Assembly: GCF_014841105.1 (NCBI RefSeq)
Contig: NZ_JACYWE010000001.1
Location: 205,517-229,516 of the forward strand
Length of the DNA: 24,000 bases
Direction: 5' to 3'
Source of the DNA: Lolliginicoccus lacisalsi
GTDB lineage: Bacteria > Actinomycetota > Actinomycetes > Mycobacteriales > Mycobacteriaceae
Below the pieces are notes generated by a model that had not been told where the DNA came from, searched no databases, and saw nothing but the letters and a program-made list of their open reading frames with translations. Below are positions 11,864 to 15,203 of the stretch, one piece after another; the first letter of the stretch is position 1, and each line of letters begins with the position of its first letter. The translations under genes and the position numbers were made by a program.

Positions 11864-12220
11864 GTGTCGGCACCACTATCCGACGGCTCGAGCGGTGAGG
11901 GGTTGGCCGCCAAGCTGGGCTTGCGGGTCGATCCTGCTTTCCTGCGTGCCGCGGAGTCCCGCCTGGCTGGTCATGCCGAGGCGGTCGGGGAGCTTGATCC
12001 TGCGGAGGGCCTAGAGGATCTGGCGCGTTCCTTGCCGGGCTCGCAATCGGCGTCGAGCTGCGGTGTCGCGTCGGCGGCTCTCGATCAAGCGGTGCATGTC
12101 CTCGCGCAACGATGCGAGCATCTTTCCCGGCTGTGCCAGGGCACTGCGGAGGACTATGAGGTGACCGAGGCTAGTTTCGCCGCCAGTTTCGGGGCATTGA
12201 GGGGGACGTTGTGGGGCTGA
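11864..12220 (+). CDS. small helical protein, EspC/DUF2580-like (type VII secretion-associated), 118 aa
   Basis: GTG at 11864 is preceded by a strong SD, AAGGAGG (11852-11858). LRVDPAFLRAAESRLAGHAEAV... and the C-terminal AEDYEVTEASFAASF fit the A..Y...D/E...A pattern of this family. Judged by pattern only. Confidence 0.55.
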   Translation: MSAPLSDGSSGEGLAAKLGLRVDPAFLRAAESRLAGHAEAVGELDPAEGLEDLARSLPGSQSASSCGVASAALDQAVHVLAQRCEHLSRLCQGTAEDYEVTEASFAASFGALRGTLWG

Positions 12221-14481
12221 CGGTGCCGATGGTGCAGGCGTGGGATCCTGGCACGTTCGCGCGCGCCTCGCGCGTGATGGCCGACCGTGCTGATGCGTTG
12301 TTCAACCACGGCAAGCGCCTTCGCGACGCGTTCGACGCTCTTGGGGAGCAGTGGGATGGCGCCGCGCACACGGCCGCCGATGATCGCGCGAACGCCGAGT
12401 GGGGGCACGCCAAAGCAGTCGCGGTTCGAGTCGAGGAGACCGCGGACTCTCTCGCGCGGGCGACCTACGACCTAGGCAGCACGTGCGAGGCATTGCAGGC
12501 GCTCCTGCTCGATGCTCCCCGCAAGCGGCTGCTGGTCCGTGACGACTGGACCGTCACCGCGCTTGATCCAGAATCCCAAGCCCTGGCCGTGGCGGAGGCG
12601 CAGCGCATCACGGGACTCCTCGCTGATCTCGAGGCATTCGACGCGACGCTCGCCGCCGCGCTCACCAGCCTCGCCCGTGACGTCGACCAGCTCACCCCCA
12701 CCGACACCGGTATCACCCCGAGCGATTCCATCGAGCTCGCGAACCGGCTCCGCGCCGAGCTCGGCTCACCACTCGGCATCACGCCAGCGCTCGCTGCGGA
12801 GATCGGCGAGCACCTCGCCCAGCTCGGGCTCTCGCCTGCCCAGCTCGCCGCCACGGCCGCCGGGCAACCTGTCTCCCTCCCACCGGACCAGCTCGGTGCG
12901 CTGCGCGCATTCTTCACCGAGACCAGCGGTAGCGACCTCCGTAGCCTCTCGTGGCACTACGACAACGAAGCCGACCCAGGGGGCGATGAGCACCACACCG
13001 CGCTCGCCAATGCCCTGCTCCTCGTGTCGAATGAGCAGATCGGCGCGGGCCTCGACCACCATGGCGAGCTGCGCAGCCCCGGCGGATACCAGTATGTGCC
13101 CGACGATATCCGCGAGGCGCTCGCGAACCGGCGCGACGACGGCCTCCCCGGCATGACCACCGTCAAGCCACTGGCAGATCTACTTGCGACAGCTGATCCG
13201 CAGTACGCGCCCGGCGAGGAGCTCGGCGCCCAGCTCGTCCACGCCGCCGCCCCCATCGGAGCCCTCTCCGTCGAGGCCGAGCAGCTCGACGGACGCAACG
13301 CCACCCTCGAGTACCCGTTCCACAGGGACTACCCGGAGATCTCCGACACCCTGCTAGACGTGGGCCTGCGCAACACCGACAGTGCTGCCGCCATCCTCAC
13401 CGGCACCTACAGCCACGGCGCCGACCTGCCGTCCTACGACCGCGACACCACCGTTGCCCAGCTCCTCCTCCACGGTGGATCATCCGCCACCCCGCTCATC
13501 GACTGGATCGCGGACGACGCCACCAGCCCCGACCACGACACCGCCACACGCGCCGGCCAATCCGCCCACGGGCTCGCCCAGGCCATCGGCTCCGACACAA
13601 CCGGGATCGGCGGCAACAACCACCACGCGTTCCTCAACGTCCCCCACCACGACAACCACGCGATCGGCCACACCAGCCCCGAGACCACCCGCGCCATCGC
13701 CAACGCGCTGACCCCGTATATTCCGAATATGGGCCAAGTGAACCCAAACCTTCTTGCCACCGATGGATTTGGTGCAGTGTCACATGGAGAAGCTGTCCGA
13801 ATATTCTCGGTCATCGATAGCAATGCTGATGTGGCGGCAGACTTCAATGCCCGGGCATATCGATCTGTTTCTGACCTCGAAGTCATCTATATCGAAAGCC
13901 TGGTGGGTGGTAATGGAAATCGACACACTGACATCGGCAGCTACATTGGATGGATTCAAGGATATATTGAGCACGGCTATATCGTCGAAGCCGAGGATCG
14001 ATCCGAGGGCATTCTGTCAGCTGCCGCTTCGCAACGCGAAGCCATAGAGCGCGCTTCGACTATCGTAGGTTCCACCCTATCCTTTGCTCCTTATGTTGGG
14101 CCAGCGATGAGTGGCGCCAGCGCACTGCTTGGCGAGTCACTGCCTAGCCGAATCGCAGGCAATGTTGAGCCGATATACACTGGCGACATGATCAACTCAG
14201 ATCAAACAATAGCTCGGCACACCTACAATGCAATCGTGACGCTCGACGGCCTAGGGGCGATCTCGCCAGACACTAGACTGGATGCGTTTCGATCAGGTAC
14301 GGGTGACTTTCTTCCTTACAGTGAGGCGATCCTAGTCGACAATCCGCATAATAATGCACTGACTGGTAGCGCCAAGCTCGACTCGATTTCAATAAACTAC
14401 CTCACTGACAACGGATTCCCCATCTCCGATTATACTCAACGAATACAGAATGCCCGCCTAGAGATCGGCAAACTTAAATGA
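12211..14481 (+). CDS. large WXG-type (putative T7SS-signal N-domain) modular protein, 756 aa; alternative start at ATG 12229
   Basis: The N-terminal ~100 aa form a helix-turn-helix hairpin with W-x-G at GEQWDGAAH (nt 12352-12360), as in WXG100-like secretion domains. It overlaps the stop of the upstream small gene. The rest is long, helical and Ala/Leu/Asp-rich. The C-terminal third is encoded by low-GC DNA. Confidence 0.7.
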   Translation: MGLTVPMVQAWDPGTFARASRVMADRADALFNHGKRLRDAFDALGEQWDGAAHTAADDRANAEWGHAKAVAVRVEETADSLARATYDLGSTCEALQALLLDAPRKRLLVRDDWTVTALDPESQALAVAEAQRITGLLADLEAFDATLAAALTSLARDVDQLTPTDTGITPSDSIELANRLRAELGSPLGITPALAAEIGEHLAQLGLSPAQLAATAAGQPVSLPPDQLGALRAFFTETSGSDLRSLSWHYDNEADPGGDEHHTALANALLLVSNEQIGAGLDHHGELRSPGGYQYVPDDIREALANRRDDGLPGMTTVKPLADLLATADPQYAPGEELGAQLVHAAAPIGALSVEAEQLDGRNATLEYPFHRDYPEISDTLLDVGLRNTDSAAAILTGTYSHGADLPSYDRDTTVAQLLLHGGSSATPLIDWIADDATSPDHDTATRAGQSAHGLAQAIGSDTTGIGGNNHHAFLNVPHHDNHAIGHTSPETTRAIANALTPYIPNMGQVNPNLLATDGFGAVSHGEAVRIFSVIDSNADVAADFNARAYRSVSDLEVIYIESLVGGNGNRHTDIGSYIGWIQGYIEHGYIVEAEDRSEGILSAAASQREAIERASTIVGSTLSFAPYVGPAMSGASALLGESLPSRIAGNVEPIYTGDMINSDQTIARHTYNAIVTLDGLGAISPDTRLDAFRSGTGDFLPYSEAILVDNPHNNALTGSAKLDSISINYLTDNGFPISDYTQRIQNARLEIGKLK

Positions 14482-15203
14482 CTCCACCGCGAAACTCATA
14501 CACCTTCTTACTAGGTTCTCTAGCAGCATCAGCAATCCTCGTAGGATGTAGTTCAGGTAGCGTCGCGAACGACTTCGTCGATAAATGCATGACCGAGCCC
14601 GTGCCCGGAACTGCCCTTCTTCACGGCCTGGTTGGCGACCTCGAGGACTCCGAAGGGCTTGCCGGCATGACGGGAACCCTCGACCCCTACCTTGATGCTG
14701 AAGGAAAGCTCCTATCGCTCGAGGTCGGCATTTCAGTTGACAATCCAGTCAATAACGCGCTGACCGGATATGCGAAACTCGATGCTGCTCTCGTCAACTA
14801 CCTCACGTCCATCGACTATCCGCACCATCCGTTCGCCCTGGCGTACTCGAACCTGCGCGATGTGACACTCAACGGCCAGGAACTGCTCCCCGACGACCGG
14901 ATCCTGTACGCGCTCGCGGAGGCCAACGAAGCCGAACTGGCCGGCCCGAGCGCGGAGTTCCGCGACTTGCTGCCCACCTCGGCAGCGCTCGACCCGTTCC
15001 GCAGCACCGAGGGTGTCCTCGTGCCATTCGAGGATGCGATCGCCATCGCCAACCCCACCGACGACCCGATCATCGGCCACACGACCCTGACCCGCATCCT
15101 CACCGAGCACTTCACGCGCCTCGACATCCCCGCCCACGTCCTCGTCGATACCTACCGCGAGGCCACCACCGACTGCGTGCCCGAGGCCCCTCAAGGAGAG
15201 TAG
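14478..15203 (+). CDS. lipoprotein (241 aa) with two copies of a ~52-aa module shared with the upstream protein
   Basis: ATGA start/stop overlap with the upstream gene (14478-14481). Signal peptide plus lipobox: MTPPRNSYTFLLGSLAASAILVG-C (Cys24). Confidence 0.75.
   Translation: MTPPRNSYTFLLGSLAASAILVGCSSGSVANDFVDKCMTEPVPGTALLHGLVGDLEDSEGLAGMTGTLDPYLDAEGKLLSLEVGISVDNPVNNALTGYAKLDAALVNYLTSIDYPHHPFALAYSNLRDVTLNGQELLPDDRILYALAEANEAELAGPSAEFRDLLPTSAALDPFRSTEGVLVPFEDAIAIANPTDDPIIGHTTLTRILTEHFTRLDIPAHVLVDTYREATTDCVPEAPQGE

Follow-up and report, generated by a model that had tools for sequence, protein, structure and literature searches.

What is encoded by three overlapping genes at positions 11864-15203 (+ strand) of a 24,000-nt stretch of the Lolliginicoccus lacisalsi genome (contig NZ_JACYWE010000001.1; hereafter the window), which have the look of secretion substrates and are without secretion-machine genes in the window? 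An initial annotation, made from the letters alone, had proposed an orphan cassette of an EspC-like protein (gene 1), a WXG-type protein (gene 2) and a lipoprotein (gene 3). Our analysis leads to a similar answer: the cassette is probably a substrate operon, consisting of partner, effector and lipoprotein, of an actinobacterial type VII secretion system (ESX, T7SSa) that is encoded elsewhere in the genome. Beyond the initial annotation, gene 2 has an EspA-like TPR_23 domain, a candidate extracytoplasmic function (ECF) sigma factor promoter lies upstream, genes 2 and 3 share a module, the two genes are a compositional mosaic and there are equivalents in Mycobacterium abscessus.

Partner, large protein and lipoprotein

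The three open reading frames (ORFs) are translationally coupled just as the initial annotation had described. The GTG of gene 2 at 12211 overlaps the stop of gene 1 (TGA 12218-12220) by 10 nt, the ATG of gene 3 at 14478 overlaps the TGA of gene 2 in an ATGA (14478-14481), and the strong Shine-Dalgarno sequence claimed for gene 1 is present (Table 1). The gene 2 product is 100% identical to an NCBI protein of L. lacisalsi, which is placed in the Hoyosellaceae (Mycobacteriales), and is 42% identical over its full length to a protein of L. suaedae. The order gene 1, gene 2, gene 3, with stops and starts mostly overlapping, is also found in L. suaedae, L. levis, Hoyosella rhizosphaerae, an Antrihabitans-like metagenome contig and one Nocardia; Rhodococcus erythropolis, Nocardia uniformis, one Mycobacteroides and Mycolicibacterium insubricum have this order as well, with a lipoprotein of another family. 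A small gene followed by a long protein and a lipoprotein is thereby seen at nine loci across the Hoyosellaceae, Nocardiaceae and Mycobacteriaceae (where loci have to be told apart, L001 is H. rhizosphaerae, L002 and L003 are L. levis and L. suaedae, L005 is Nocardia sp. and L008 is Mycobacteroides). Because the gene order recurs across these related loci, the three ORFs are, on comparative grounds, real and conserved genes and not chance ORFs of high GC content. No ecc or mycP gene lies within 8-10 kb of the cassette in the nine related loci; likewise, none of the ORFs of the window encodes an Ecc or MycP protein, in line with the initial annotation. A search of a plasmid collection found no plasmid-borne homologue.

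The N-terminus of gene 2 had been described as a WXG-type helical hairpin. As a single sequence it stays below the WXG100 thresholds (PF06013, E = 0.0085, 16.8 bits vs 27.3; NCBIfam TIGR03930, E = 0.021), and PF06013 matches 10 of 40 family members. A profile of these 40 members, compared with PDB sequences, finds solved WXG100 chains over residues ~10-97, namely M. tuberculosis EsxB/CFP-10 with E = 7.8e-7, ESAT-6 with 6e-4 and ~15 others; Staphylococcus aureus EsxA scores 1.6e-3. Since the family profile matches EsxB significantly, the N-terminus is, judged from the sequence, a true WXG100 domain. W48 and G50 (W48-D-G50) are at least 90% conserved in the 40 sequences, and in the AlphaFold2 model [predicted local distance difference test score (pLDDT) 85.9, predicted template modelling score (pTM) 0.75] the WxG sits in the turn between helices 13-44 and 51-101.

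For the ~650 residues that follow, the initial annotation could recognise no enzymatic motif, and here it has to be corrected. The EspA-like TPR_23 family (PF23275) matches aa 204-432 with E = 3.2e-34 (119.3 bits vs a cut-off of 27; profile positions 2-234 of 234), and all 40 family members contain it. The WXG100 hairpin together with a full-length TPR_23 domain gives aa 1-432 the build of EspA/EspE; databases already annotate the gene 2 family as a T7SS target. The 324 residues beyond aa 432 match no Pfam, NCBIfam or PDB sequence. They comprise an all-helical domain, a Gly/Ala/Ser-rich loop in which P627 is invariant in the 40 sequences and whose hydrophobicity is too low for a membrane span, and a C-terminal module that is described below. 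Conservation in the family peaks at aa ~420-540 and is lowest in the C-terminal ~130 aa. Foldseek comparison of the model with the PDB and viral libraries gave nothing below E = 1e-3, returning generic ARM/HEAT solenoids only. An exhaustive search of representative proteins was needed because word-indexed protein searches returned Hoyosellaceae proteins only, probably owing to saturation by Ala-rich words. With the extension as query against 1.84 billion representatives, it found 90 relatives, mostly of 700-870 aa and matching at ~430-700; the genera of the family are Nocardia, Rhodococcus, Antrihabitans, Gordonia, Hoyosella, Mycolicibacterium and Mycobacteroides. The top match of the model in the viral library, an unnamed 347-aa protein (A0A8A1VBB3; 168 columns, rmsd 3.5, probability 1.0, E = 0.013), might be a phage-encoded WXG-like helical protein.

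The proposed EspC-like nature of gene 1 held in part. PF10824 (EspC, DUF2580) matches three of the four gene 1 orthologues end to end, all below threshold (E = 0.0036, 0.088 and, for the L. lacisalsi protein, 0.096), and does not match the fourth. Comparison of the orthologue alignment with a PF10824-positive Nocardia protein by hhalign gives 73% probability over 72 columns and places gene 1 AEDYEVTEASFAASFG opposite AATYDATDGSFASGLG of the Nocardia EspC protein. The four orthologues have GTAEDY(D/E)(V/L)TE invariant, containing an export motif of the YxxxD/E type, as well as LPG at aa 57-59, presumed to be the hairpin turn. The tyrosine of the motif, Y98, aligns with the YDATD motif of the Nocardia EspC protein and with the YxxxE tyrosine of the CFP-10-like EsxP, which is the best, though weak, PDB match of gene 1 (E = 0.11). 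The small partners of Antrihabitans, R. erythropolis, Mycobacteroides and M. insubricum gain no support in hhalign comparison with gene 1; that of the Nocardia cassette reaches 39%. What stands is thus the end-to-end likeness and the invariant motif, what does not is a match above the Pfam threshold, and gene 1 is best described as a putative divergent EspC/CFP-10-like partner. Two side observations concern small partners at other loci. In L001 a second copy of gene 1 (P0115) loses its similarity after GTAEDC, and YxxxE is missing. A Pfam-positive EspC gene (109 aa) in L005 runs into the start of a gene for a 526-aa protein without Pfam family (13207-15113, minus strand); adjoining the gene 2-family cassette, this is probably another partner-effector pair.

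Gene 3 was correctly called a lipoprotein. Its signal peptide MTPPRNSYTFLLGSLAASAILVGC ends in the lipobox LVGC with Cys24; the lipobox is present in all nine homologues, and Cys24, C37 and C233 are invariant in them, in keeping with a lipoprotein that lies outside the cytoplasm and has disulfide bonds. In the NCBI annotation (P0038, 204 aa) the gene begins 37 codons late, at M38, and so loses the signal peptide and lipobox (window 14478-14588). A gene 3 profile found nothing among PDB sequences, and a fold search was discarded as meaningless, the model from a shallow alignment being poor (pLDDT 54). A sigma-70-like site (CTGACA-17-GATTAT, 14405-14433) in the last part of gene 2, 45 nt ahead of the gene 3 start, is a consensus match within an AT-richer stretch and could be an internal promoter for gene 3.

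A module and a mosaic patch spanning genes 2 and 3

Gene 3 contains two copies of a 56-aa module, and a third copy ('type 1') forms the C-terminus of gene 2. By BLASTP the gene 2 module matches gene 3 aa 68-127 with E = 1e-10 and aa 171-218 with 1e-5; domain E-values by hidden Markov model are 1e-21 to 1e-25. The gene 2 module and gene 3 module 1 constitute one subtype. Within a genome these two are 65% identical in H. rhizosphaerae, 55% in the Antrihabitans-like contig, 48% in Nocardia and 43% in the L. lacisalsi window, against 29-39% between genomes, the within-genome likeness being the greater in four of six genomes. The shared module is carried by 6 of 60 long representatives of the gene 2 family. 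In the pairs with a class B lipoprotein (L001, L006, L007) effector and lipoprotein are without homology, and so the shared module is a subfamily trait and no general rule.

The module lies in a ~1.1-kb patch of unusual composition, made up of the C-terminal third of the effector, the lipoprotein signal peptide and module 1. The G + C content at third codon positions (GC3) of gene 2 is 0.85 over codons 1-502 and 0.50 over codons 503-756, with a change point at codon 502 (nt ~13717; log-likelihood ratio 51.8). In gene 3 it is 0.37-0.70 up to codon ~105 and 0.83-0.97 afterwards. Because GC3 changes sharply at its borders, the patch is compositionally foreign; one Nocardia homologue has a similar internal drop. 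Identity to L. suaedae falls along gene 2 from 64% (aa 433-502) to 36% (aa 503-618) and 25% (aa 690-756), is 32% at aa 31-105 of gene 3 and returns to 64% at aa 171-241. The C-terminal module of the window resembles its counterparts in Hoyosella, Antrihabitans and Nocardia (33-36% identity) more than those within the genus (25-28%), and the N-terminal parts display the opposite pattern, that is, phylogenetic incongruence. As the low-GC3 patch and the drop in identity follow the same boundaries, these sequences are most simply read as a joint replacement, by recombination, of the effector C-terminus and the corresponding half of the lipoprotein. Variable toxin ends and their immunity genes behave in this way in polymorphic systems.

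Table 1. Positions of the cassette features and of the surrounding elements (window numbering unless a locus is named).
Feature	Nucleotides	Residues or codons	Strand	Remark
Left palindromic element	6617-6682		.	Second solo copy; 81-82% identical
Inverted repeat TGTG-N8-CACA	11755-11770		+	~10 nt upstream of -35
Candidate ECF sigma (SigM-type) promoter	11781-11809		+	-35 GGAACC 11781-11786, 16-nt spacer, -10 CGTCCCA 11803-11809
Shine-Dalgarno of gene 1, AAGGAGG	11852-11858		+	5 nt before GTG 11864; sequence reading
Gene 1	11864-12220	118 aa	+	GTG 11864 to TGA 12218-12220
YxxxE export motif of gene 1	12155-12169	Y98-E102	+	Invariant in orthologues
Gene 2	12211-14481	756 aa	+	WXG100, EspA-like TPR_23 and C-terminal extension
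WXG100 helical hairpin of gene 2	12235-12510	aa ~9-100	+	Family profile, AlphaFold2 model
WxG of gene 2	12352-12360	W48-G50	+	Family conservation
EspA-like TPR_23 domain of gene 2	12820-13506	aa 204-432	+	PF23275
All-helical domain of gene 2	13507-14064	aa 433-618	+	No Pfam family; best-conserved part of family
Low-GC3 patch	13717-14790	Gene 2 codons 503-756, gene 3 codons 1 to ~105	+	~1.1 kb
Gly/Ala/Ser-rich loop of gene 2	14065-14193	aa 619-661	+	Low confidence, pLDDT below 50
Gene 2 C-terminal 'type 1' module	14278-14445	aa 690-745	+	Third copy, homologous to gene 3 module 1
Gene 3	14478-15203	241 aa	+	Lipoprotein
Lipobox LVGC of gene 3	14538-14549	aa 21-24	+	Consensus [LVI][ASTVI][GAS]C
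Gene 3 module 1	14679-14846	aa 68-123	+	56-aa module
Gene 3 module 2	14988-15155	aa 171-226	+	Second copy of 56-aa module
Right palindromic element	15221-15286		.	18 nt after gene 3 stop; right block boundary
~70-nt palindrome copies	3181-3283, 4039-4109; L002 1433, 2305, 6019, 6832; L003 174, 6800			Intergenic

Promoter and genomic setting

A conserved candidate ECF promoter of the SigM type precedes the cassette. GGAACC-N16-CGTCC has this one match in the window. In the other Hoyosellaceae loci (L001, L002, L003) both hexamers recur with a different spacer 41-72 nt (up to 83 nt by one count) ahead of gene 1, and in Mycobacteroides L008 they precede the small partner gene by 89 nt; the motif also precedes DUF3558 lipoprotein genes and further paralogous cassettes. 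In 102 kb there are 11 sites against 0.39 expected from base composition, and 9 or 10 of the 11 stand immediately before such genes, on the coding strand. For M. abscessus, a SigM binding site with -35 GGAACCG has been published (PMC13491425). Upstream of the -35 element is an inverted repeat; repeats of the TGTGG-N5-8-CCACA type (TGTGG/GTGAC...CCACA) occupy the same position in most Hoyosellaceae promoter copies (L001, L002, L003), and the one in the window could be a binding site for a second regulator. In M. abscessus promoters an A-rich tract has been reported at that position instead. Scans revealed neither a sigma-70 site ahead of gene 1 nor a terminator behind gene 3, and no Rfam family was found in the window.

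Three paralogous gene 2-family cassettes are present in L001 (4167-7985, 9595-14043 and 14310-19419), each with the same promoter motif. This locus also has a tandem duplicate of gene 3 and an array of three to four class B lipoprotein genes; duplications or arrays of lipoprotein genes downstream of gene 2 family members are found in L001, L004 and L009. Directly ahead of the cassette, L. levis and L. suaedae have a gene for a ~600-aa protein (L002 7607-9418, L003 7606-9408) that combines a WDG motif with an extended Ala/Gly/Pro-rich region and a weak WXG100_2 match, a build resembling EspK/EspI. DUF3558 lipoprotein genes, which have the same ECF promoter, lie before it.

The repeat-bounded accessory block proposed initially is real. 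The cassette is inside an 8.6-kb block (6617-15286) bracketed by two palindromic elements, each palindrome (~55 nt) being built from both terminal inverted repeats of an IS30-family element at 7794-9143 and predicted to form a DNA hairpin (-21.9 kcal/mol, z = -3.8). The block also holds this IS30-family element, a UDG-like gene and a PIN/HTH_17 toxin-antitoxin (TA) pair. In the pair (10204-11821, minus strand) the HTH_17 gene (196 aa) overlaps a PIN_3 ORF. With its start as listed, this ORF has 412 aa, more than is usual for a PIN toxin; the PIN domain occupies residues 78-181 and is followed by a long C-terminal extension. The neighbours of the cassette are entirely different from those in L. 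suaedae and L. levis; the window lacks the ~600-aa WxG protein, the DUF3558 proteins and the SNF2 helicase of that neighbourhood. TA, abortive infection (Abi) or conjugation genes surround the cassette in other genera. A separate ~70-nt imperfect palindrome, TGCTAGCTGATGTCAC...GTGACATTAGCTAGCA, recurs between genes in three Lolliginicoccus genomes with 78-87% identity; it matches no Rfam family and looks like an element of the repetitive extragenic palindrome/miniature inverted-repeat transposable element (REP/MITE) type.

Possible roles and relation to known systems

Because the anatomy of the cassette matches a locus type published for M. abscessus, we read genes 1 and 2 as a co-secreted T7SSa pair with expression from a SigM-type promoter and gene 3 as the cognate envelope lipoprotein. 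Gene 1 and the N-terminus of gene 2 would form a four-helix bundle; EccC of an ESX-4-like machine would recognise the combined WxG/YxxxE signal, and both proteins would be exported jointly. Gene 3 would be exported by Sec, lipidated and held on the outer face of the membrane, where it would bind the variable C-terminal region of gene 2, and recombination would carry the effector C-terminus from strain to strain as a unit with the corresponding part of the lipoprotein. On the model of EatA/EatI in M. abscessus, gene 3 may be the cognate immunity lipoprotein of an envelope-acting effector, a tentative proposal that we rate a little short of an even chance. It is doubtful that gene 3 module 1 goes as far as to act as a decoy of the gene 2 C-terminal module, pairing or competing with it so as to block oligomerisation or target binding at the producer membrane, and being swapped together with the effector C-terminus as a ~1.1-kb cassette by means of flanking homology in gene 2 aa 433-502 and gene 3 module 2. 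Were this true, it would amount to a principle of immunity or docking so far undescribed in type VII systems and would tie the EspA/EspE scaffold to interbacterial conflict.

A number of observations weigh against a secreted effector with partner and immunity protein. Gene 1 reaches 13.6 bits with PF10824 (gathering score 23.5; E = 0.096), and since this match is below threshold it is no certified member of the EspC family. The best-conserved part of gene 2 is the middle domain and not the N-terminal signal alone. Searches of Pfam, NCBIfam and the PDB and comparison by Foldseek reveal no recognisable toxin or enzyme domain in gene 2. The protein also has no conserved residues of catalytic type, and a transmembrane segment, the absence of which also counts here, was rejected (maximal 19-residue hydropathy 1.3). 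Homology between an effector and its immunity protein is unusual, and the characterised homologues EspA/EspE are not toxins. Identity between the gene 2 C-terminus and gene 3 module 1 is only 20-21% in L. levis and L. suaedae, where the two do not co-vary. As to the promoter, the motif is absent upstream of the Nocardiaceae cassette copies, and -35 elements with GGAAC are common to several ECF sigma factors. The -10 element of M. tuberculosis SigM, gtCcgA, fits CGTCCaA, a resemblance that amounts to no test.

Some of these points would suit a non-toxic, secretion-associated surface complex like EspA/EspC or EspE/EspF, with a structural, adhesive or secretion-supporting role, in which genes 1 and 2 would remain at the cell surface after export and gene 3 would be a membrane anchor or assembly partner docking gene 2 via the shared module. 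Gene 2 is EspA-like over aa 1-432, and its model as a whole is a helical solenoid akin to ARM/HEAT scaffolds, without an enzyme fold. Two proteins with homologous modules lend themselves to homotypic docking, and EspA/EspC and EspE/EspF are co-secreted secretion or surface factors rather than toxins (PMC6107294). A hypervariable, horizontally replaced patch and tandem lipoprotein arrays nevertheless fit conflict systems better than a housekeeping structure, the operon is found at variable locations among TA, Abi and insertion sequence genes, and no chaperone gene of the EspD/EspH (YbaB-like) type is among the ORFs scanned; we consider such a complex unlikely. Far less probable still is a wholly cytosolic arrangement, with gene 2 as TPR scaffold, gene 1 as its partner and the lipoprotein adjacent by coincidence. 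TPR-like solenoids are commonly cytosolic, the single-sequence WXG100 and EspC matches are below threshold and ESX genes are not nearby in the window, but the family profile matches WXG100 structures significantly, and WxG and YxxxE are conserved on the expected partners. Moreover, the linkage to a lipoprotein gene with translational coupling is kept in three families of the Mycobacteriales, the gene 2 C-terminus is homologous to a module of an extracytoplasmic lipoprotein, and the corresponding M. abscessus operon belongs to the ESX-4-linked SigM regulon. The substrate operon remains our preferred reading.

In M. abscessus, ESX-4 secretes the arabinanase toxin EatA, whose helical N-terminal trafficking domain is bound by two small WXG100-like partners (TapA1/TapA2), and EatI, a lipoprotein encoded next to EatA, protects the producer. 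The survey in the same work describes many such loci across the Mycobacteriales, with 47% of the 400-1000-aa effectors lacking a predictable payload, and lipoprotein or membrane immunities accompanying effectors that are predicted to act outside the membrane (PMC13444075; bioRxiv 10.64898/2026.08.24.746431). Like the eat locus, the L. lacisalsi cassette has a small helical partner upstream, a large protein with an N-terminal helical domain and a lipoprotein directly downstream, and it is presumably likewise remote from the secretion genes. It differs in having one partner gene rather than two, in the TPR_23 domain of gene 2, in an all-helical C-terminus without known fold where EatA has a GH183 glycoside hydrolase payload, and in the module that gene 3 shares with the effector, the available text on EatI mentioning no such sharing.

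EspA and EspE carry WxG, EspC and EspF carry YxxxD/E, each pair being treated as a co-secreted dimer, and espACD is >260 kb from its own secretion locus (PMC6107294). The pairing of a WxG + TPR_23 protein with a small YxxxD/E protein is common to M. tuberculosis espA-espC-espD, M. marinum espE-espF(-espH) and the present cassette. Here, the order is reversed, with the small partner first, and a coupled lipoprotein gene stands in place of the chaperone gene espD/espH. Gene 2, with its 320-aa extension, is about twice as long as EspA/EspE, exceeding them by ~360 aa.

The initial annotation had drawn a parallel to LXG/WXG effector loci of Firmicutes; the same analogy was drawn in 2026 for mycobacterial ESX-4 toxin loci (PMC13444075). 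T7SSb LXG loci (Lap, LXG toxin, immunity; for example TelC/TipC) likewise have small helical partners, an effector with an N-terminal helical domain and a downstream protein. In LXG loci that downstream protein confers immunity and resides in the envelope if its toxin acts outside the membrane (PMC10801868, PMC6193138), and the variable C-terminus is exchanged together with the downstream gene, as seems to hold for the cassette too. The likeness is one of architecture only, without relationship in sequence: the secretion subtype is another, targeting is by WXG and not LXG, and gene 2 has no recognised toxin domain.

We found no description in the literature of a module shared by effector and lipoprotein, of their joint replacement or of conservation of the promoter outside the Mycobacteriaceae. 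Mycobacteria provided the first description of the locus type itself, in 2026, and M. abscessus has a known, though uncharacterised, operon of this type. In a family that is uncharacterised and an organism that is environmental, the value of the cassette is that of a lead and not of a discovery. It links a scaffold of EspA/EspE type to a variable C-terminal payload and a cognate lipoprotein.

A close counterpart is in the SigM regulon of M. abscessus, which comprises esxU/esxT and 14 remote loci of predicted ESX substrates, is enriched in DUF3558 proteins and includes as operon 7 Mab_1286c (WXG100), Mab_1285c (EspA-like) and Mab_1284c (lipoprotein-like) (PMC13491425, 2026). The likeness is one of layout and description. 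Shared are the order of small helical partner, EspA-like large protein and lipoprotein, the location (presumed for the cassette) away from the esx-4 locus, the -35 element GGAACC(G/A) and, in related loci, DUF3558 genes that are co-regulated or adjacent. Unlike in operon 7, the small partner of L. lacisalsi is EspC-like and not a Pfam-positive WXG100 protein. Gene 3, of class A with two modules, is also distinct from the class B '...PGW' lipoprotein of Mycobacteroides. The Mycobacteroides member of the gene 2 family (P0081, L008) has both the layout of operon 7 and the promoter motif. Promoter and relatives alike point to systems of the ESX-4 type rather than ESX-1, and the occurrence of the cassette in the Hoyosellaceae suggests that the arrangement is old and widespread in the Mycobacteriales.

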